A program made the translations under genes and the position numbers. This document shows positions 6,176 through 47,594 of a stretch of 48,375 nucleotides of DNA, piece by piece. Origin of the DNA: Patescibacteria group bacterium (lineage in GTDB: Bacteria > Patescibacteriota > Minisyncoccia > Moranbacterales > SCTJ01); assembly GCA_004297805.1 (NCBI GenBank), contig SCTJ01000052.1:1-48375 (forward strand). The letters run 5' to 3'. The notes beneath the pieces were generated by a model. It worked only from the letters and a program-made list of their open reading frames with translations. It made no database searches and was not told the origin of the DNA. Every line of letters starts with the position of its first letter. The first letter of the stretch is position 1.

Positions 6176-7264
6176 TTATTTGGTGAATTTGAAGGTGGAA
6201 AGGACTTGGTTAAATTCTGGTAAAGATTTTTGTACTTCTTTTTTGCCATCATAGTTAACGTATTCATTCCCACCTTCCGGAATTGGCACTATATTAAACA
6301 AATAACCATTTCTTGCAATTGAAAAAAAGTAGCCCTCCCTAAAACAAGCGTCCCCGCCAAGAATATAGATTTCTTTTGACTGATATCCATCCACGCCGAC
6401 AGTAACACTCTTAAAAGAATTTTTCTCACAGGAGGTAGGCTCATCACCGGTACTGGCTATTTCATCCGTAAATCTTTGGTCATCCAACCCTAATCCCTTA
6501 TATATTTTTACATCGAAACCAGAGCTATTTTCTTCAAGGGTTCTAGATTTACGAAAAGCAACTGCTGATTCAAAGCGCATTCCGCAGCAGGGTGATTTTA
6601 TTTCTGGCGCCTCCCATCCCGCCGGATATATGAACTCAAATCCATATTTTTTGTTTCGATAAGTTTTCCAAGCAGACACATCATCCGCTTTTCCAAACTT
6701 TACCGGCAACTTGAATGACTCATCCAGCGCCCGATTATCGGATGGATTGTCTTTTTTGAAGAGCAGGTAGCCCTCCGAAGTGGTTGGCTGACTGAATTTC
6801 ACTTCTCCCCTGAAGTCTACGAATTCAGTGGTCATCCAGGTGTCCTCGGCAGATTTCGGAACAAATTGCGCTGGCGCTGATCCGATTAACTTCCCATTGC
6901 TATCATGCACTTCTACTGGGAAACTGCCTTCAAAAAACCAAGTTCCACGTGCCCGCCCAGTCACCACCACTGGACTAGAAATGGCTGCACCTATGCCAGG
7001 AGAGCTGACAATAAGTTTATCCGCTAAGCCTGTCGTCTTGGGACACTCGGCAAATTCGCAATTGGGACCAGTGCGTCCCACCGCTGACCCGTCCGAACAA
7101 ATCTTGGCATCTTCAGTGCAAGCCTTGGGTTGGGTTGGCAGCATGCTAAACGGAACAGTTTCGACATTGATCAATCTATTCTCCTGCCAAGCGATAACCG
7201 CTACCAACACTACCAGCGACAACAGGAGGACAGATCCGAGAGCAGTATTAACATGTTGTTTCAT
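6176..7264 (-). CDS. Membrane-anchored secreted protein with Gmad2-like Ig domain
   Basis: N-terminal TM (ALGSVLLLSLVVLVAVIAW). The segment ISSPVVVTGRARGTWFFEGSFPVEVHDSNGKLIGSAPAQF resembles the Gmad2 immunoglobulin-like domain. Confidence 0.55.
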   Translation of the reverse strand: MKQHVNTALGSVLLLSLVVLVAVIAWQENRLINVETVPFSMLPTQPKACTEDAKICSDGSAVGRTGPNCEFAECPKTTGLADKLIVSSPGIGAAISSPVVVTGRARGTWFFEGSFPVEVHDSNGKLIGSAPAQFVPKSAEDTWMTTEFVDFRGEVKFSQPTTSEGYLLFKKDNPSDNRALDESFKLPVKFGKADDVSAWKTYRNKKYGFEFIYPAGWEAPEIKSPCCGMRFESAVAFRKSRTLEENSSGFDVKIYKGLGLDDQRFTDEIASTGDEPTSCEKNSFKSVTVGVDGYQSKEIYILGGDACFREGYFFSIARNGYLFNIVPIPEGGNEYVNYDGKKEVQKSLPEFNQVLSTFKFTK

Positions 7265-18911: not shown

Positions 18912-19652
18912 TTAGGCAACAACCCAGCGGATGTTTGGGTGATGGCGGGCGCCCCTTTTGATTGCATTATGCCGGCCAATTCTAAACATTCCGTCTTCCT
19001 GACCAACCATGGGGATGCGTCCGTCAGAATAACGAGAGCCGTAACAAAGCGTTAAACTCCGGGCGTCTAAGTATTCTCCTGTATTAGCAAAATAAAAAAT
19101 ACCCAGCAACATTCGCTCCTCGAGAGTGATGCCGTGGGTTTTGTCCTCGCTCGAGGATCGCCCGCCATCCAAACCCCCGTCGGTTGTCTCTATTTTTTCG
19201 CTGACCCAAATAGCGTAGCTACCTGAAGTCGCCGAACGATCAGATTGGGTAATATTATTAAGGCTGTCCTCTGTCCATTTTGTTGTGGAAAAAAGTTCGA
19301 CACACTTTTCGAAAACTCGCTGGGGCGTCATGCTTTCGGCTACCACAATAAGAAATGTGAATTCTTCTTTTTGTTCAGGTGTGCGTCGAGGAATGCGGAT
19401 CTGAGATTCGTTAATCGGAATTTTGAAAAGCTCCCAATATATTTTTGACCAATTCGCCAACTGTTCTCGTGTTTCTGGATCCATCAGTCTTTCGCGCAGT
19501 GAATTAGCACGCTGAATAATTTCCGCTTGCAGCCCATCGACTTCGGCGAATTGCTTACTGACTTCTACTTTTTTTAAGGCCGCGTCAAATTCCCGCTTGG
19601 CTCTTTGCAGTTCATTCAGATCTTGCACTAATTCGCGACAATTGGGTTGCAT
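18912..19652 (-). CDS. Hypothetical protein, paralog A of a two-member family (partner at 27590-28555)
   Basis: Shares the start MQP(N/D)C, an N-terminal coiled coil and C-terminal blocks with paralog B. The ATG lies 8 nt after an extended -10, so the start is apparently leaderless. Confidence 0.7.
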   Translation of the reverse strand: MQPNCRELVQDLNELQRAKREFDAALKKVEVSKQFAEVDGLQAEIIQRANSLRERLMDPETREQLANWSKIYWELFKIPINESQIRIPRRTPEQKEEFTFLIVVAESMTPQRVFEKCVELFSTTKWTEDSLNNITQSDRSATSGSYAIWVSEKIETTDGGLDGGRSSSEDKTHGITLEERMLLGIFYFANTGEYLDARSLTLCYGSRYSDGRIPMVGQEDGMFRIGRHNAIKRGARHHPNIRWVVA

Positions 19653-19660
19653 ATGCAAGT

Positions 19661-19669
19661 AGTATAGCA
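19661..19669 (-). promoter_or_regulatory. Extended -10 element (P2) for paralog A
   Basis: Minus strand reads TGCTATACT, then ACTTGCAT, then ATG. Confidence 0.55.
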
Positions 19670-19943
19670 CATCAAAAGCCTGTCATAAAAACCGTCCGTA
19701 CCTGCCCGAAACGCTCCGCGTATCGGAGCGGGCGGGCGACCGAGACGCTTGAAAATTAAGCGTAACGAGCGTAAAGAAACTGCGACTAGCGAAGCGTTTT
19801 AGCAGTTTTAGCGAGTGCAGCGTGAATTTTCCGTCGAATGGAGTCAGGATCGGCGTTTTCTTTCTATCCACTTTCTTTGACGCCAAAGAAAGTGGATGAA
19901 TACACTACGCAGTATTTTAAGTATATACACATGTATATACATT

Positions 19944-19952
19944 AGTATAGCA
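19944..19952 (-). promoter_or_regulatory. Extended -10 element (P1) at the start of module A
   Basis: Minus strand reads TGCTATACT 6 nt after the amrA stop codon. Confidence 0.4.
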
Positions 19953-19958
19953 TTTTTA

Positions 19959-20573
19959 TCAGCGGTGTTTTTCCACTGTGAATTCAAAAAGTGAAATTGG
20001 GTCTTGCTCCGGATCGATGCCGCCTTTTTCAGCCGCAATGGCAATTTGCTGCTCCGTCGTATCCACGCCTTCCAGGTCCGGCAGCAATAGCCCCCGTCGT
20101 CGGCCGGACTGCACAATAATCCCATGCTGCCGCACGTCATGTGCTGCCAAATCCTGGACAGATACTGGCTCACTCAACACACTCACTTCGCAAGTAATAT
20201 TCTTCAGTTCAGCTGCCTCAATTGGGTCAAAACGATAATCCTCAGAACAGGCTGAAACGGCATTCTGGATTATTTCCTCGGCCAGGTTATCGCAAGTTGG
20301 CAGAAAGGTACCAACACATCCCCGTAAAACTCGCTCCTGCTCGCCACGGGGCAGGCCCCTCAAACCCGCATGCTCGCCACGGGGTAGGCCCCTCAAACCC
20401 GCATGCTCGTCACGGGGCAGGCCCCGCGATTCACCATGGCTATAGATCGTCACAAAAACGCCCGCCCGACGGGAATAGAAATCAGGCGGAAGATCTTTCG
20501 GAGCTTCAACGACCTTATTTTCGATAATATATTTTTCGATTGTCCGCTTGGCCAAAGCTACGTATGGATCCAT
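19959..20573 (-). CDS. amrA: AMMECR1 domain protein (AmmeMemoRadiSam system protein A) with internal tandem-repeat insertion
   Basis: GVFVTIY...LRGCVGTF...DYRFDPI...EVSVLSEP...GIIVQSGRRRGLLLP motifs. An insertion of about 30 aa sits between the first two motifs. Confidence 0.85.
   Translation of the reverse strand: MDPYVALAKRTIEKYIIENKVVEAPKDLPPDFYSRRAGVFVTIYSHGESRGLPRDEHAGLRGLPRGEHAGLRGLPRGEQERVLRGCVGTFLPTCDNLAEEIIQNAVSACSEDYRFDPIEAAELKNITCEVSVLSEPVSVQDLAAHDVRQHGIIVQSGRRRGLLLPDLEGVDTTEQQIAIAAEKGGIDPEQDPISLFEFTVEKHR
20340..20425. repeat. 33-bp in-frame tandem repeat, about 2.6 copies
   Basis: The unit CTCGCCACGGGG(C/T)AGGCCCCTCAAACCCGCATG occupies 20340-20372 and 20373-20405, with a partial third copy. 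It encodes GLRGLPRGEHA repeats. Confidence 0.95.
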
Positions 20574-27589: not shown

Positions 27590-28555
27590 TTATAAACTAC
27601 GGGAGAATGACACGCCCATACTGCCACTGATATTGCCAGGCCGCCACCGATACACGAACGCGCCGCTATAATCGAAAGGGCCAATACCTATCAAGCCACC
27701 GCCTGAGTCACAACGCCTGGTCCACGCATAAGTATTCTTCAGCAAATGCTCTTGGTTGGTGAGGAAATAGAGAGTAATGTCATAAAGTACCTCAGCTGGG
27801 GTTTGGCGAGTCAGTTGATTGATTTGGAGAGCAGAGAGTTCTCGAGCATATTTTTGCCAGTTGGGACCGTCGAGAACTTCATTCAGTTTTGCATTATTCT
27901 TGAAGATAAGTTCAGGGTTGGCAGTAAGATAGGCTTCGAGTTCTCGAATAGCCATTTGATATCGTAGAGGGACAGGTCGATTCTGGAAAACTTGAGTTTG
28001 TATATATTTAACGAGCACTTGCGTTTGGCGGAGATAATTTCGGTTGGTGGAGCCAGGAATAGCTTCCTTTGAGACTAGTGCCCAGCGTGACTCGATGGGG
28101 TCATTCTCCCAGAAGGCTTTGTTATAAGATTCATTGGCAGTTATTTTTCTCATCCCATCCTTAGTAAATCTGTCTTGCAGCGCATCACGCACGCCCTTCA
28201 TAGTGAGGGGGTTTCCGGCTTTATTTTTCCCAATCCGCAGAACCAGGAATTGTCCCAATTCCTTGGCGCGTTTCAGTTCTTCCCTCTTGAAAGGAATGGG
28301 TGGGATTTTATCGGGCAGATAACCGTAAGCTTTTTCGACGGCCTTGGGACCCAAGCAATCTTGGCCAAGGATAGCTTCGGCCTCCTCGGGAGAAACGTGG
28401 AATTGTTCGCGGAGAACCTCTAATTTAGCGGCGAGTTCCTTTTCGATAACCTTAGCTTCATCGAAATTGCCCACATCTACTGCCACATTAAAATCAGCCT
28501 TGAGCTTTTGGATTTGGGAAAGATTATCGGATATTTGCTGGCAATCGGGTTGCAT
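27590..28555 (-). CDS. Hypothetical protein, paralog B (partner at 18912-19652)
   Basis: Starts MQPDC... 8 nt after TGCTATGCT. Shares the N-terminal coiled coil and the C-terminal blocks (LYF.T..E.L, C..GG, G..F..R) with paralog A. Confidence 0.7.
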   Translation of the reverse strand: MQPDCQQISDNLSQIQKLKADFNVAVDVGNFDEAKVIEKELAAKLEVLREQFHVSPEEAEAILGQDCLGPKAVEKAYGYLPDKIPPIPFKREELKRAKELGQFLVLRIGKNKAGNPLTMKGVRDALQDRFTKDGMRKITANESYNKAFWENDPIESRWALVSKEAIPGSTNRNYLRQTQVLVKYIQTQVFQNRPVPLRYQMAIRELEAYLTANPELIFKNNAKLNEVLDGPNWQKYARELSALQINQLTRQTPAEVLYDITLYFLTNQEHLLKNTYAWTRRCDSGGGLIGIGPFDYSGAFVYRWRPGNISGSMGVSFSRSL

Positions 28556-28852
28556 ATACGAATAGCATAGCACATTAACAGCCTGTCATAAAAACCGTCC
28601 GTACGAAGTGCGTAGGCCAATTCCAGCGGACGAGCGTTAAAAAAAGTTTAGACTTGTCATCCTGAACTTGATTCAGGATCTAGATTCCGGCTCGGAGTCC
28701 AGAATGACAATTGTTGAGGCGCTTTCCCTGCCTGCCGGCAGGCAGGTTTCTGTCCACTTTCTTTGGCGCCAAAGAAAGTGGACAAATAAAACCCGCTACA
28801 TTTTAAGTATATACACATGTATATACACGTGTATATACATTAGTATAGCATT
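28556..28852. repeat. Composite intergenic module, copy B
   Basis: Contains the same 24-nt block (28581-28604) and a perfect 32-nt palindrome GTCCACTTTCTTTGGCGCCAAAGAAAGTGGAC (28752-28783). It also has a perfect 20-nt palindrome CCTGCCTGCCGGCAGGCAGG (28727-28746), three GTATATAC cores (28807-28838), and TGCTATACT on the minus strand (28842-28850). Confidence 0.9.
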
Positions 28853-29380
28853 TTACGCTCCGTAATTGGCAATCATTTCGCTTGGCCGCACCCACCAGTC
28901 CATCTGCGTGCGTTTTTGGCCTTCTTTGAAATAACCGGGCAAGACGCTGCCCCGCCAAGGTCCAACATAGATGCTGAAATGCAAATGCGGCGCTTCCCAC
29001 CAACCATTTTCGGGCGTATTGGACTTTCCGATCGTGCCAATCACCTCGCCCAGCTCCACCGACTCGCCTTTTTGTTTGCGCATTTCTCCCAAGTGGCCAT
29101 AGAGCGAAAAAAATGGCGTACTTGTTTTTGGATTCTTGTGCGCGATAATCATGACGTTGCCCCAATTGGGTTTCTTCTCACTACCCGGATGCAGCGCGGC
29201 ATAAACGACGCGGCCCCGACCAATCGACAAAATCGGCGTGTCCGGCGCAAGCACCATGTCTTCACCCAAGTGAATTCCCCAGTGCGTCTTGCCGTGCACC
29301 ACTGCTTCACCAAAAGAAAGACTATTGGCTTGATAACCAGCCACCGGATAATCAAGTTTTTTGGTCAAAAGATAACCCAT
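28853..29380 (-). CDS. M23 family metallopeptidase
   Basis: HxxxD motif (GIHLGEDM) and HxH motif (PHLHFSIY). 175 aa with no obvious signal peptide. Confidence 0.8.
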   Translation of the reverse strand: MGYLLTKKLDYPVAGYQANSLSFGEAVVHGKTHWGIHLGEDMVLAPDTPILSIGRGRVVYAALHPGSEKKPNWGNVMIIAHKNPKTSTPFFSLYGHLGEMRKQKGESVELGEVIGTIGKSNTPENGWWEAPHLHFSIYVGPWRGSVLPGYFKEGQKRTQMDWWVRPSEMIANYGA

Positions 29381-36197: not shown

Positions 36198-36256
36198 ACC
36201 TTCATAATAGCAAGAAAAAAGGCGCTGCACCAAAGTTATGAAAAAGCAGCCCAAGG

Positions 36257-36703: not shown

Positions 36704-37321
36704 CTATTTCCCAAAAAGATCACTCACAATCGGTGTTAGTCGTTCTTCAATCACGGCATAACCGGCATCGTTGGGATGGATGGGATCAGACATATATTTG
36801 GGTTTTCCAAACACATCCCGGAGAATATCCGGAACGTACACTGCACCCGCCCTCTTGGCCACGGCCTCAAAATCAGCGTCTCGTCCGCCCCCAATCAGGC
36901 CGCTCCGCACACCCACCAACGCCACTACTGCCCCGTTGCTTTGAAAATAAGTTACGATTTTTTCGAGATTCTGAAATGTTTCGGTTTGCGGAATTTTCCT
37001 CAGCACATCATTGCCGCCGAGAATAATGATTACCACTCCTGGGTCTTCATTGGCGGCCACCGCCATGCGTTCCAAGCCATCACGAGTCGTGTCGCCGCTC
37101 TTCCCATAGTTCAGCACTGTTTTGCCAAGCTGCGCCGCGAGTCGACTACTCAAATCATTCCCGGCCGTCGCTCCCACCCCCTCCGCCAAACTGTCACCAA
37201 AAATCAGAATGGTTCCATTTTTAGGCGGAACATTTTTAATTTCCGGAGCTTTTCTGAAAATAAAGAATCCGGCCATCCCCAATAAAACCACTGCTACAAT
37301 TATAATCAACGTCCTTTTCAT
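36704..37321 (-). CDS. SGNH/GDSL hydrolase family protein
   Basis: Block I IFGDSLAEG, block III ILGGND, block V DPIHPN. N-terminal TM/signal. Confidence 0.85.
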   Translation of the reverse strand: MKRTLIIIVAVVLLGMAGFFIFRKAPEIKNVPPKNGTILIFGDSLAEGVGATAGNDLSSRLAAQLGKTVLNYGKSGDTTRDGLERMAVAANEDPGVVIIILGGNDVLRKIPQTETFQNLEKIVTYFQSNGAVVALVGVRSGLIGGGRDADFEAVAKRAGAVYVPDILRDVFGKPKYMSDPIHPNDAGYAVIEERLTPIVSDLFGK

Positions 37322-37335
37322 GAGATTATTCTAAC

Positions 37336-37385
37336 ACAAAAACAGCCTGCCTGCCGGTAGGCAGGGGTTTGGACCCTGTTTTTGT
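37336..37385 (-). terminator. Compound hairpin terminator of the 37459-38208 gene
   Basis: Outer 10-bp stem ACAAAAACAG/CTGTTTTTGT encloses CCTGCC...GGCAGG. The T-run is part of the stem. A second CCTGCC-atc-GGCAGG hairpin lies at 37391-37405. Confidence 0.6.
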
Positions 37386-38410: not shown

Positions 38411-38668
38411 TTATTCTGCCACACAATATAATGCTATGTACCCAGCGTTGTTTTCTGGATTAGTACCTTTCCGCTGTGAGATGTAGAAACCATTGCTATT
38501 GGGAGCCAGGATTCCATTTGGACCGTGCTGCGCATAGGAAGCTCGAGCCTGACCAAAGCAAGCGTTTGAGTTGGCATTTTCACTCACAACTGGCGAAGCG
38601 GCTAGGGCCGTCAAGGAAAAGGCCACCATTCCCGCAGTAGCCAATGCTGTTGTTATAATTTTTTTCAT
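38411..38668 (-). CDS. Small secreted two-Cys peptide, family member A
   Basis: The signal peptide MKKIITTALATAGMVAFSLTALAA is nearly identical to that of 47212-47487. The mature part is about 61 aa, Gly/Asn-rich, with 2 Cys. Confidence 0.7.
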   Translation of the reverse strand: MKKIITTALATAGMVAFSLTALAASPVVSENANSNACFGQARASYAQHGPNGILAPNSNGFYISQRKGTNPENNAGYIALYCVAE

Positions 38669-38741
38669 AATTTTGAAGATTAATTGCATTAATTACAATT
38701 TGGCATGTCGACCTCATACCGTTTCAGATTTTGATGCTTCC

Positions 38742-38747
38742 ATTATA
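38742..38747 (-). promoter_or_regulatory. -10 hexamer TATAAT for small peptide A
   Basis: Minus strand reads GGTGTATAATGG. The same context occurs at 47557-47562 upstream of peptide B. Confidence 0.5.
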
Positions 38748-38944
38748 CACCTTTGAGTTTGGCGGGCCAATGCGAGAAAATACCCCTGCCTACCGGCCCG
38801 CTTAGCCGAATTGAGACGAGCAGGCAGAATTTAGGACATTTCTCACCAATCGATTTTGTTTGGAATTATTCTCGGTGAAATATAAAGTTGTGGTTGTTGT
38901 ACTACACATTATCAACCACTACAACCAATCATGTCGGCTAGCTT

Positions 38945-42072: not shown

Positions 42073-42711
42073 TTAGTCGTTACGAATATTGTTTAATTTC
42101 TTCCTAGCAATAATCCTGATCCAGTGGGTGTCTTTTCTGCCCCCATCATCCTTGCGTAAACTCGAATATAACACCTCATAGCCCTCATTCTTCAGTATTT
42201 TTTCGAGCTCACCTTCTGAAAAATAGACAAACCATCTTTTCTCTTCGGAAAGTTTATCTTTTTTGTAGGAGGTTCCCTTACCCTTTTTGACCTGAATGAA
42301 AATAACACCTCCCGGCCTCAAAACTTTGTGAATATTTCTGAGAACGTTTGGGATATCCTTTTTTGAAATATGCAACAATACCGCCGAAGCCCAAACCCCA
42401 TCGAAAGAGTTAACAGGAAGCTTCAGCTGAAGCAAATCCATCTTTTTGAACCTCGCTTCTGGAACATTCTTTCTAGCTTGTCTCAAAAAGGTATCGACCA
42501 AATCAATACCTGTAACTCTGAATCCTTTTCCGGCAAACCTTTTGCTGTCTCTGCCACCCGCGCAACCAATATCCAATACCGACCCCTTCCTTGGCAGCAA
42601 TTTAGCAAAATCCAAAAATTCGCTAGGCATTAGACCCTCAATTACCTTTAGATAGGCGCTTCCCATCCTTGAATACGCTTTGATTGTATTGGCATGTTTG
42701 TCGCCTTCCAT
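42073..42711 (-). CDS. Class I SAM-dependent methyltransferase
   Basis: Motif I VLDIGCAGGRDS, motif post-I GIDL, and SFDGVWASAVLLH. Its stop abuts the EamA start. Confidence 0.85.
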   Translation of the reverse strand: MEGDKHANTIKAYSRMGSAYLKVIEGLMPSEFLDFAKLLPRKGSVLDIGCAGGRDSKRFAGKGFRVTGIDLVDTFLRQARKNVPEARFKKMDLLQLKLPVNSFDGVWASAVLLHISKKDIPNVLRNIHKVLRPGGVIFIQVKKGKGTSYKKDKLSEEKRWFVYFSEGELEKILKNEGYEVLYSSLRKDDGGRKDTHWIRIIARKKLNNIRND

Positions 42712-42714
42712 ACT

Positions 42715-42820
42715 CCCATCATATCAAAAAACCCCTGCCGGAGCGAGGGTGGAAGAATTACGTAATTTTTATCCACCTCAGGTGGAAATTACGTAATTGT
42801 TTACGTAGATATGAACGTAG
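42715..42820. repeat. Promoter-module repeat, copy b
   Basis: CCCATCATATCAAAAAACCCCTGCCGGAGCGAGGGTGGaAGAaTTACGTAATT...TTTACGTAGATATGAACGTAG. It matches 43492-43566 with 2 mismatches plus a 31-nt internal duplication. The minus strand reads TGATATGAT at 42718-42726. Confidence 0.9.
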
Positions 42821-43458: not shown

Positions 43459-43491
43459 AAATTGTTAGGTTAAACATTACGCCGTCATAAG

Positions 43492-43576
43492 CCCATCATA
43501 TCAAAAAACCCCTGCCGGAGCGAGGGTGGGAGAGTTACGTAATTATTTACGTAGATATGAACGTAGTCCGGAACGT
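43492..43576. repeat. Promoter-module repeat, copy c, with 12-nt phased ACGT cores
   Basis: Same sequence as copy b. ACGT cores lie at 43537, 43549, 43561 and 43573. The minus strand reads TGATATGAT at 43495-43503. Confidence 0.9.
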
Positions 43577-43640
43577 ACCTAAAAATCGCAGGGCGATGTT
43601 AGCTCTTGGGGCAATAAAGTCCAGTCTAATTACCCACTGG

Positions 43641-47211: not shown

Positions 47212-47487
47212 TTAATTGCTTTGTCTGTTTCCACAAACACCGCTATTATTCAATCCTGTCTGATAGCCGTTAGCTCCTCCAGCCATATTCAAATCTTTTC
47301 CTAAGTATCCAAACGCTCCTGAAGCTGCACCTGAGCCACATTGCGCTCCAACTTCTGTTGCTTGCTGACGACCAAGATTATCCAAATATCGGTCAATTCC
47401 AGGAGTAGAGTTTCCAGCTGCAAAAGCAGTCAGAGAGAATGCCATAACCCCCATAGTAGCCAACGTTGCTGTTATGATTTTTTTCAT
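47212..47487 (-). CDS. Small secreted two-Cys peptide, family member B
   Basis: Signal peptide MKKIITATLATMGVMAFSLTAFAA. The mature part is about 67 aa, Gly-rich, with 2 Cys. Promoter and 5-prime UTR are conserved with member A. Confidence 0.7.
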   Translation of the reverse strand: MKKIITATLATMGVMAFSLTAFAAGNSTPGIDRYLDNLGRQQATEVGAQCGSGAASGAFGYLGKDLNMAGGANGYQTGLNNSGVCGNRQSN

Positions 47488-47594
47488 AGTTTTTTTGAAG
47501 ATTAAATAATTATTTTGGTATGTCGACCTCACACCATTTCAGATTCCAATACCTCTATTATACACCTTCTCAATCAAAGCCACGAACCCATCTG

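Follow-up and report, generated by a model that had tools for sequence, protein, structure and literature searches.

A candidate family of stand-alone bacterial RNAs with a predicted triple-helix cap at the 3′ end

Introduction

In an H-type pseudoknot, it is loop 1 that runs across the deep groove of stem 2. The pseudoknots of the SAM-II and preQ1-II riboswitches and of telomerase RNA share one topology, in which a stem 1 is combined with a U-rich loop 1 that lies in the deep groove of stem 2 and forms U·A-U triples. Each of these pseudoknots has 3–6 triples and binds a ligand or protein; the riboswitches among them occur in 5′ leaders. For bacteria, riboswitches and a group II intron are all that a 2026 review of RNA triple helices mentions, and according to a 2020 structural paper solved natural triplexes contain no more than six consecutive triples. 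Here we describe two intergenic spacers, 19653–19958 (copy A) and 28556–28852 (copy B), in a 48,375-nt stretch of Patescibacteria DNA (contig SCTJ01000052.1 of assembly GCA_004297805.1; hereafter the window). Comparison with related loci leads us to propose, with a probability of about 0.6, that each spacer is a stand-alone plus-strand RNA gene of ~200 nt, formed by a rod domain and a 3′ pseudoknot capped by a triple helix.

A 3′ pseudoknot with a mirror-repeat loop

A sequence-only reading of the window had listed a series of blocks in the two spacers, and all of them are present in the same order in both. Among them is a 30-nt palindrome at 19867–19896 and 28753–28782, for which 0 occurrences are expected by chance. 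Read on the plus strand, it is contained in a 12–14-bp hairpin, S2, at the 3′ end of a predicted RNA. The elements of this RNA in copy A are listed below; R1 is the covariance model described in the next section, MFE is minimum free energy, and L numbers (L006, L102 and so on) label loci fetched from other genomes.

19689–19897, plus: predicted copy A non-coding RNA (rod and 3′ triplex pseudoknot); R1 122 bits over the full model; MFE −80.7 kcal/mol, z = −4.14
19692–19697, plus: helix P1, 5′ strand CCGUCC, inside the 24-nt block; pairs with GGA(U)CGG at 19847–19853
19701–19736, plus: lineage-specific GC-rich hairpin insert (CGCTCCG/CGGAGCG), missing in most members; a similar insert occupies the same place in L046
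19741–19846, plus: rod domain; helices 2–7 covary
within 19741–19846, plus: long-range rod helices GACG..GAAAAUU / AAUUUUC..CGUC
19767–19772 and 19810–19815, plus: internal loop GAGCGU / AGCGAG
19789–19795, plus: GCGAAGC tip of the rod helix AAACUGC/GCAGUUU
19847–19853, plus: helix P1, 3′ strand GGAUCGG
19852–19856, plus: S1, 5′ strand GGCGU; pairs with ACGCC at 19880–19884 (hairpin loop and one further nt)
19857–19865, plus: L1, putative pyrimidine third strand UUUCUUUCU; parallel copy of AAAGAAAG, run lengths co-varying in variants
19866–19897, plus: S2 hairpin AUCCACUUUCUUUG-ACGC-CAAAGAAAGUGGAU; the palindrome part is 19867–19896

Ahead of L1 lies a segment of 3–5 nt, S1, that is complementary on the plus strand to the loop of the S2 hairpin. 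This pairing covaries, from GGCGU/ACGCC in copy A and GGCGC/GCGCC in copy B to GAGCG/CGCUC, GGUCU/AGACC, GUCG/CGAC, CUGG/CCAG and GGUG/CAUC, and thereby defines an H-type pseudoknot in the order S1 5′ strand, loop L1, S2 5′ strand, S1 3′ strand (the hairpin loop itself) and S2 3′ strand. The assignment of the palindrome to one stem of such a pseudoknot is well supported by these comparisons. In L022, L026, L037, L054, L067, L095 and L107 the perfect palindrome has its 4-nt loop inverted with respect to paralogues, which looks like a template-switch inversion of a DNA palindrome.

L1 follows the purine strand of S2. Its sequence, UUUCUUUC, has the same 5′-to-3′ pattern as AAAGAAAG, meaning that it is a parallel copy and a mirror repeat, not a direct repeat, of the Watson-Crick pyrimidine strand; alternative Watson-Crick pairing therefore cannot account for it. 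The canonical sequence is nearly symmetric, so that asymmetric variants are decisive for the register. In L102 the purine strand AAAG-AAAAG faces the Watson-Crick strand CUUUUC-UUUG, and L1 reads UUUC-UUUUC. Partner copies in L020, L090 and L110 combine the purine strand GAAG-AAAAG with L1 UUC-UUUUG, the L082 partner copy combines AAAG-AAAAG with UUUC-UUUUG, and the L057 partner copy combines AAAAG-AAAAA with UUUUUC...UUUUUU. Hairpins inserted into L1 (copy B, L078, L082, L084 and the second copy of L057) always follow its first C, and both halves of the third strand are kept around them. A second RNA type from rumen metagenome-assembled genomes (MAGs) carries AAAGAGAAGAAGAAAA with L1 UUUCUCUUCUUCUUUU, matching at 16/16 positions. 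A generic scan of all fetched DNA yielded seven more unrelated purine runs of 12–17 nt (L016, L026, L029, L044/L070, L072, L098 and L112), each preceded by a full or nearly full (15–16 nt) parallel pyrimidine copy and each with its own covarying 3-bp S1 and an A-rich tail. The U·A-U / C+·G-C parallel register in which L1 tracks S2 is the signature of a triple helix, and this covariation of three strands strongly suggests that L1 and S2 form one.

A second, unrelated small RNA of rumen and gut MAGs ends in the same type of cap, with longer and different triplex sequences (12–16 triples). The loci concerned are as follows.

L016, L018, L026, L029, L044/L070, L072, L098, L112: unrelated caps with full-length mirror copies (12–16 nt), eight or more sequences, each with an S1 of its own
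L018, L040, L052, L069, L091; L016, L026, L029, L044, L070, L072, L098, L112: second small RNA or its cap type

Rod domain and covariation

The structure underlying R1 was seeded by hand comparison and then refined with a covariance model. RNAalifold applied to raw MAFFT alignments recovered the palindrome alone, and an automatic search for helix P1 partners was too unspecific. Helix P1 joins the 5′ end of the RNA (CCGYNC, within the 24-nt block) to the segment just 5′ of S1, and covaries as CCGCAC/GUGCGG, CCGCCC/GGGCGG, CCGUCC/GGACGG and UCAGCC/GGCUGA. Nested within it, the rod begins with two short helices and continues into a long helix (GCAAAUUC/GAAUUUGC with extensions), which is followed by the conserved internal loop GAGCGU/AGCGAG with tandem G·A pairs; in L066 and L074, G-C and A-U pairs take their place. 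The rod ends in the helix AAAACUCC/GGAGUUUU and a variable tip, often GCGAAGC. What had been described as a variable GC-rich hairpin region is indeed present, yet it is no mere variable filler, since it holds the conserved helices of an RNA family.

Across the window R1 gives two full-length matches, both on the plus strand: 19689–19897 (122 bits) and 28592–28783 (55 bits, E = 1.5e-12). On the minus strand it finds only low-scoring matches the size of the palindrome. Among 43 distinct full-length members, a pair occupies 84.9% of pairing cells, where shuffles reach 67.0% (0/500); the covariation score stands at 0.457, compared with 0.154 in the shuffles (0/500), and 50 of the 54 pairs change on both sides. 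As a control, sliding the partners by 1–3 columns leaves 38–47% pairing. The sequence-only reading had raised an independently transcribed RNA of ~250 nt, and a covarying RNA structure of 192–209 nt does fill that interval; the strand proposed for it does not hold up as well, the plus strand being favoured.

Distribution of the family

More than 100 further copies occur in other genomes, so the absence of other copies that the sequence-only reading named as a refutation is not what we find. A search with CACTTTCTTTGNNNNCAAAGAAAGTG against one genome per species and a metagenome collection returned 56 genome loci and 57 metagenome loci, 113 in total, all of which were fetched. The hosts of the palindrome include Patescibacteria (Moranbacteria, Parcubacteria, Saccharibacteria), rumen and gut MAGs of Gastranaerophilales type, Ignavibacteriota, Bacteroidota, Leptospirales, Lysobacteraceae and others. 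In all but a few loci the UUUCUUUC strand stands on one side of the palindrome, written there as TTTCTTTC(T). Rumen and gut MAGs hold many palindrome copies, often at contig ends, and a BLAST search placed the triplex-pseudoknot module at 3–18 sites per replicon in Caballeronia and Burkholderia. The palindrome was found in none of the viral contigs and had no meaningful match in phage records. Two loci place the module in cultured Burkholderiaceae.

L120, 77958–77984: Burkholderia sp. THE68 p1
L121: Caballeronia sp. NK8 pNK81

An all-against-all BLAST of open reading frames from 58 loci gave no protein family shared within ~3 kb of the RNA. Rfam 15 has no match at the gathering threshold anywhere in the window, its matches at 19600–20000 are at chance level (E up to 10), and in 20 related loci it finds tRNAs only. 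Full-text searching of the literature gave no description of such an element. The existence of the structured family is well supported; it would be a new orphan RNA family, spread across Patescibacteria, Gastranaerophilales and probably other groups. With neighbouring proteins that are not conserved and no corresponding Rfam family, it most likely represents a stand-alone RNA gene.

Several arrangements recur among the fetched loci. The RNA genes usually form head-to-head divergent pairs of different subtypes, their 5′ ends 7–50 nt apart, whereas the head-to-head partner of each window copy is a protein gene and not a second RNA. The sequence 3′ of S2 is A-rich (A 45%, T 29% in 88 distinct loci), and terminator-like or AT-rich perfect palindromes lie within tens of nt downstream in L053, L046 and L015, with a CACCAAAATATATATTTTGGTG type in rumen MAGs. 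In L006 a tRNA gene occupies 6481–6553 and the RNA 6564–6744; the two are convergent under the plus-type orientation and co-directional under the minus-type.

L020, L057, L082, L090, L110, L076, L008, L049: head-to-head RNA pairs

Transcribed strand

We consider it probable, with good confidence, that transcription of the RNA uses the plus strand and runs antisense to the flanking genes. The pyrimidine-rich third strand sits in the deep-groove-crossing loop of the pseudoknot on the plus strand only. The tandem G·A loop, too, appears on that strand alone, and in copy B it is the only strand on which a U tract comes after a GC hairpin. Unpaired positions of the plus-type strand comprise 852 A, 499 U, 479 G and 267 C (A 41%, C 13%), against U 35%, C 27% and G 9% on the other strand. 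GCGNAGC mini-hairpins occur 19 times on the plus-type strand versus 3, and in individual loci wobble pairs appear in helices P1, P2 and S1 of the plus-type strand. In Caballeronia and Burkholderia the Rfam candidate small RNA Bp1_684 lies on the same strand as the module. Back to back with the TATACT of promoter P2, which precedes the divergent gene of each spacer (see below), TAGTAT (19663–19668, plus) in copy A and TAGCAT in copy B overlap it, and this mirror face of promoter P2 might possibly serve as the plus-strand promoter of the RNA.

A number of observations weigh against a plus-strand RNA with a triplex cap. Folding energies barely separate the strands when expressed as z-scores (mean −3.85 versus −3.48; 16/27 favour plus, p = 0.06); raw MFE favours plus in 23/27 (p = 5.5e-6), which is mostly an effect of composition. 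On the model alignment, 78 G·U versus 62 A·C is not a significant difference. It is on the minus strand that a textbook promoter, promoter P1, precedes the palindrome and that the far end carries a T tract, and no strong promoter match was found on the plus strand in the window. The L006 tRNA, which lies on the opposite strand and stops 10 nt short of the palindrome, would suit a minus-type transcript. The alignment behind the covariation figures had been fitted to the structure model. Within the pseudoknot, the linker between L1 and S2 is short (2–3 nt), the predicted triplex would depend on protonated C+·G-C triples, and at about 6 loci with an inverted hairpin loop S1 cannot form. Copy B has no recognisable 3′ strand of helix P1 and scores far below other members; it may be decaying.

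Several of these points would be natural for an RNA made from the minus strand, which would start at promoter P1 (19944–19952), pass the GTATATAC cores and the hairpin and end at GGACGGUUUUU (~19690), with the purine stretch AGAAAGAAA as a pseudoknot loop 3 in the minor groove of the hairpin. Promoter P1 fits the genome consensus TGnTAnnnT, a T tract comes after the last helix in both window copies as well as in L053, L015, L079 and L082, TATAAT-like hexamers stand 12–20 nt upstream of the hairpin in rumen MAGs, the L006 tRNA would lie upstream on that strand, the G·U and A·C counts do not tell the strands apart, and a good fold is obtained for the minus strand, too (−73.3 kcal/mol, z = −3.83). 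This account also runs into difficulty. Most loci lack a T tract after the last helix (GGGCGGAAUAAG, AUGCGGAAAAUC and similar), and the GGTTTTT tract at which the sequence-only reading ended the RNA is the complement of an A-rich stretch ahead of the 5′ helix of the RNA. Promoter P1 and the GTATATAC cores are missing from the copies of every other genome; under the plus-strand reading both lie downstream of the 3′ end of the RNA, which leaves them no part as its promoter and operator. Unpaired positions of a minus-strand RNA would be rich in U and C and poor in G, with U·C/C·U mismatches in place of tandem G·A and GCUNCGC in place of GCGNAGC. A minor-groove loop needs no base register, so run-length covariation over 12–16 nt would go unexplained. 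Natural all-RNA purine-motif triplexes are absent from the two reviews consulted, and we know of none from elsewhere. We regard a minus-strand RNA as unlikely.

The coding-strand position of promoter P1, ~290 nt upstream of the ATG at both paralogues, would also allow a riboswitch-like 5′ leader of the minus-strand genes, with promoter P2 as a second, internal promoter. In other genomes there is no consistent downstream gene, the element is often convergent with its neighbours, divergent RNA–RNA pairs are common, and the strand arguments made above apply equally; such a leader is highly improbable. As candidates of this class, SAM-II and preQ1-II riboswitches were rejected for the same want of a consistent downstream gene, the only SAM-II match in the window (19.5 bits against a gathering threshold of 44) lying outside the module, in another part of the spacer.

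Spacer flanks and DNA-level explanations

When aligned, the two spacers share two near-identical flanking blocks, separated by a middle that barely aligns, and a repeat search returns the same two blocks (D1, D2). The flanking features of copy A are the following.

19898–19958, no strand assigned: genome-specific 3′ flank, with an A/U-rich spacer, a palindrome of two GTATATAC (19921–19940) and TGCTATACT (19944–19952, minus)
19650–19691, minus: putative promoter region of divergent gene A, with TGCTATACT at 19661–19669 and ATG at 19650–19652
18912–19652, minus: divergent gene A, 246 amino acids, separate from the RNA

On the minus strand, the stop codon of AMMECR1 (amrA; 19959–20573, Pfam PF01871) occupies 19959–19961, and TGCTATACT, promoter P1, follows 6 nt on at 19944–19952, as the sequence-only reading had it; copy B is preceded by an M23-peptidase gene (28853–29380). 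Two GTATATAC cores follow in the copy A spacer (19921–19928, 19933–19940) and three in copy B (28807–28838), making 5 matches against 0.12 expected (0/100 shuffles). Promoter P1 and these cores stand 3′ of the RNA; the convergent upstream gene has its stop 5–40 nt before them. The two 3′ flanks have the core TATTTTAAGTATATACACATGTATATACA in identical form, TTAGTATAGCATTTT comes after the last GTATATAC core in each, and the flank with GTATATAC folds as an AU hairpin. Promoter P1 and the cores might act as an AU-rich terminator hairpin common to both loci, as an antisense promoter or as an operator.

At the other end, the 24-nt block GTACGGACGGTTTTTATGACAGGC is identical in both copies (19678–19701 and 28581–28604; 0 expected). 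Searched as a 21-mer, the block has no exact match in the metagenome collection, and it is therefore genome-specific. The second extended −10, promoter P2, reads TGCTATACT in copy A and TGCTATGCT in copy B and stands 8 nt ahead of ATGCAACCC. Its pairing with a near-leaderless ATG is credible: a TGnTAnnnT layout ~6–8 nt ahead of the ATG marks many genes of the window, for example at 36212, 35665, 37336, 43503, 42726 and 617, and promoter P2 has it at 19661–19669 (ATG 8 nt on) and 28564–28572, while promoter P1 has the box with no ATG after it. Promoter P2 and its ATG would thus be of the ordinary extended −10, leaderless type of this genome, serving 18912–19652 and 27590–28555. The two window RNAs belong to different subtypes, copy A resembling L053, L065 and L095 and copy B resembling L010, L015 and L043, so the near-identity of the flanks belongs to the genome, where regulation in common or gene conversion would have produced it, and does not characterise the RNA family.

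The spacers might instead be regulatory DNA only, namely a terminator of the upstream gene with operators and promoters that co-regulate two paralogous genes, the palindrome being a protein-binding site. Between the loci, conservation is higher in the flanking blocks than in the RNA body or in the coding sequence, each GTATATAC core forms a perfect palindrome of 8 bp within a 12-bp period, and similar promoter-plus-repeat modules exist at 42709–42820 and 43486–43578. Binding sites, however, give no compensatory changes in at least five helices and a pseudoknot, the palindrome and body adjoin unrelated genes in many phyla, and gene A homologues in other genomes lack the element. No intrinsic terminator scored in copy A, there being no terminator-like sites in 19400–20100, and S2 is followed by A-rich, not U-rich, sequence, which also speaks against a generic terminator-plus-promoter. 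The shared operator or insulator cassette offered by the sequence-only reading may apply to the genome-specific flanks but leaves the palindrome and the middle region unexplained. For these two parts regulatory DNA is largely refuted, and we judge it very unlikely as an account of the spacers.

Pyrimidine-motif triplexes are classical for DNA. The element could act as single-stranded DNA, a repeat resembling repetitive extragenic palindromes or miniature inverted-repeat transposable elements, whose folded strand, with an intramolecular H-DNA-type triplex in it, is recognised by an HUH-type transposase or recombinase supplied in trans. Some genomes hold it in many copies, which such a mechanism would account for (RUG14399 has at least 12 loci, frequently at contig ends, besides the copies per replicon in Caballeronia and Burkholderia), and inversions of the hairpin loop are expected of DNA palindromes. 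In RUG14326-type rumen contigs an RNA pair lies in a repeat unit of ~0.7 kb or longer with CACCAAAATATATATTTTGGTG-type palindrome borders. Set against this, there is no transposase or other conserved gene within 3 kb, Patescibacteria have only 1–4 diverged paralogues per contig, the element is absent from the viral contigs and phage records searched, and family-wide compensatory changes over a 130-nt rod, with GNA-type tips and tandem G·A loops, are typical of functional RNAs. A mobile single-stranded DNA element is accordingly improbable.

Copy B

Copy B belongs to another subtype and has diverged; it was not in the seed alignment. Its third strand is split by an inserted hairpin, which together with L1 is terminator-like on the plus strand only.

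28592–28783, plus: predicted copy B non-coding RNA, diverged, other subtype; R1 55 bits, E = 1.5e-12
28718–28722, plus: S1, 5′ strand GGCGC; pairs with the loop GCGCC at 28766–28770
28723–28751, plus: split putative third strand, UUUC, inserted hairpin CCUGCCUGCCGGCAGGCAGG (28727–28746), UUUCU
28752–28783, plus: S2 hairpin (palindrome)
28784–28852, no strand assigned: 3′ flank, with three GTATATAC (28807–28838) and TGCTATACT (28842–28850, minus)
28553–28591, minus: putative promoter region of divergent gene B, with TGCTATGCT at 28564–28572 and ATG at 28553–28555
27590–28555, minus: divergent gene B, 321 amino acids; its N-terminal ~60 residues alone are common with gene A

The inserted hairpin (CCTGCCTGCCGGCAGGCAGG, 28727–28746) is nearly identical to a terminator-like hairpin at 37346–37365, which is followed by a promoter and a leaderless ATG (~37300–37365, minus strand).

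Neighbouring genes

Proteins A and B have no Pfam domain and resemble each other in only ~60 N-terminal residues, at 30% identity (MQP.C...). The intervals 19473–19652 and 28376–28555 on the minus strand hold this common module of ~60 amino acids in two otherwise unrelated proteins, whose genes also have their promoter and 14 initial coding nt in common. Homologues of protein A in other genomes align mostly to its C-terminal 60–80% alone, which suggests a swapped or converted 5′ cassette at genes A and B. Of the 63 homologues of protein A, those with a source name all come from Patescibacteria (the candidate phyla radiation, CPR) or unclassified bacteria. In two contigs the gene A homologue adjoins bAvd and an RVT_1 reverse transcriptase (L116, 2501–5040; L118, 2501–5230), and the family probably provides the variable target protein of a diversity-generating retroelement; the window contains no template repeat of such an element for gene A or gene B. 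In five other contigs gene A homologues occur without the RNA, so the adjacency is local.

Elsewhere in the window, 42709–42820 and 43486–43578 form a repeated module in which TTACGTAA-type repeats, spaced at a 12-nt period, are combined with a T-tract GC hairpin, with TGATATGAT and with a leaderless ATG; its design matches that of the GTATATAC and promoter P2 flanks. A third similar pair, 38597–38753 and 47416–47568, shares a gene start and its upstream sequence at 74–84% identity. Within the AMMECR1 gene, three tandem 33-nt repeats at 20338–20436 encode a repeated GLPRGEHAGLR peptide.

Discussion

In the RNA gene that we propose for each spacer, L1 would lie in the major groove of S2 and form ~8 consecutive U·A-U / C+·G-C triples, burying the 3′-terminal purine strand of the RNA in a triple helix. 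Transcription might be driven by the symmetric −10 of promoter P2, which may fire toward the RNA as well. The primary transcript would run into the A/U-rich flank, in the source genome toward the AU-rich GTATATAC hairpin. The A-rich tail and the terminator-like palindromes downstream suggest read-through followed by trimming back to the triplex, which would then block 3′-to-5′ exonucleases. The rod, with its conserved non-canonical loops, may be a protein-binding or otherwise trans-acting platform. By analogy, our best guess would be that the RNA is stable, acts in trans and carries a 3′ cap that keeps exonucleases out.

A broader proposal is that bacteria of several phyla use a modular 3′ cap, a mirror-repeat helix of 8–16 consecutive triples locked by S1, that finishes and stabilises at least two unrelated small-RNA families; we give it an even chance. 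If true, the window loci would be ordinary members of a commoner capped family. Should the prediction hold, it would provide a long, sequence-programmable triple helix in bacteria and a new answer to the protection of small-RNA 3′ ends. Many 200–450-bp ‘empty’ spacers in CPR genomes are probably RNA genes. Some carriers are in culture (Caballeronia sp. NK8, Burkholderia sp. THE68, Lysobacteraceae NML08-0793), and the three-strand covariation supplies ready-made designs for compensatory mutants.

Other element classes fit less well. A CRISPR repeat was set aside, with only one copy per site, as was a TnpB/IscB guide RNA, with no nuclease gene nearby and a 3′ flank that is conserved among copies and not guide-like. 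An attC site, a retron, 6S RNA and Y RNA were likewise considered and rejected.

Among described RNAs, raiA, OLE, ROOL, GOLLD and HEARO resemble the present family as widespread, covarying, stand-alone orphan RNAs, sometimes multi-copy. They differ in that they give no sequence or model match and that our RNA is much smaller and has the distinctive triplex module. Rfam RF02421 (Bp1_684, or Bp1_Cand684, a SIPHT prediction) has matches in Caballeronia and Burkholderia only, where its model begins with AGAAAAGUGACC, inside the 3′ arm of S2 and on the same strand. At 49.5 bits in L121 and 38.8 in L120, it overlaps the module by only ~10 nt and extends from there away from the pseudoknot and rod, into what lies downstream of the hairpin, as a computational candidate with no such structure described; the 113-position model has no match in the window.

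‘Paperclip’ pyrimidine-motif triplexes and H-DNA have comparable mirror-repeat pyrimidine strands, with a third strand parallel to the purine strand. They are designed oligonucleotides or supercoil-dependent DNA, whereas the module described here sits in a covarying fold of RNA type. In topology the module resembles the SAM-II, preQ1-II and telomerase pseudoknots, but it would hold 8–16 consecutive triples, has no loop 3 and stands at the 3′ end of a stand-alone RNA.

Long three-stranded RNA helices of the kind predicted here are known so far mostly from eukaryotes and viruses. A close parallel is the helix formed by an element for nuclear expression (ENE) with an A-tract, as in MALAT1, MENβ, the PAN RNA of Kaposi's sarcoma-associated herpesvirus and the ENEs of plant and fungal transposons. 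There too a run of U·A-U triples broken by C+·G-C buries a 3′ purine strand, and the protection from 3′ exonucleases proposed for our module would be analogous. As in MALAT1, a genomically encoded A/G-rich tract would be both Watson-Crick and Hoogsteen acceptor. The third strand runs parallel to the purine tract as in an ENE, judging from mirror matches of 8–16 nt that co-vary with the stem. An ENE differs in that its two U-rich strands form opposite sides of an internal loop within a stem, between which a distant tail is clamped. The pyrimidine strands of the module, L1 and the 5′ arm of S2, are instead contiguous mirror repeats without such an internal loop; its purine strand is the 3′ arm of the same hairpin, S1 locks it, and it is bacterial and has no poly(A). 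If the proposed structure is correct, the cap would be the counterpart in prokaryotes of the ENE/MALAT1 strategy, and its triple helix would rank with the longest that occur naturally in RNA.

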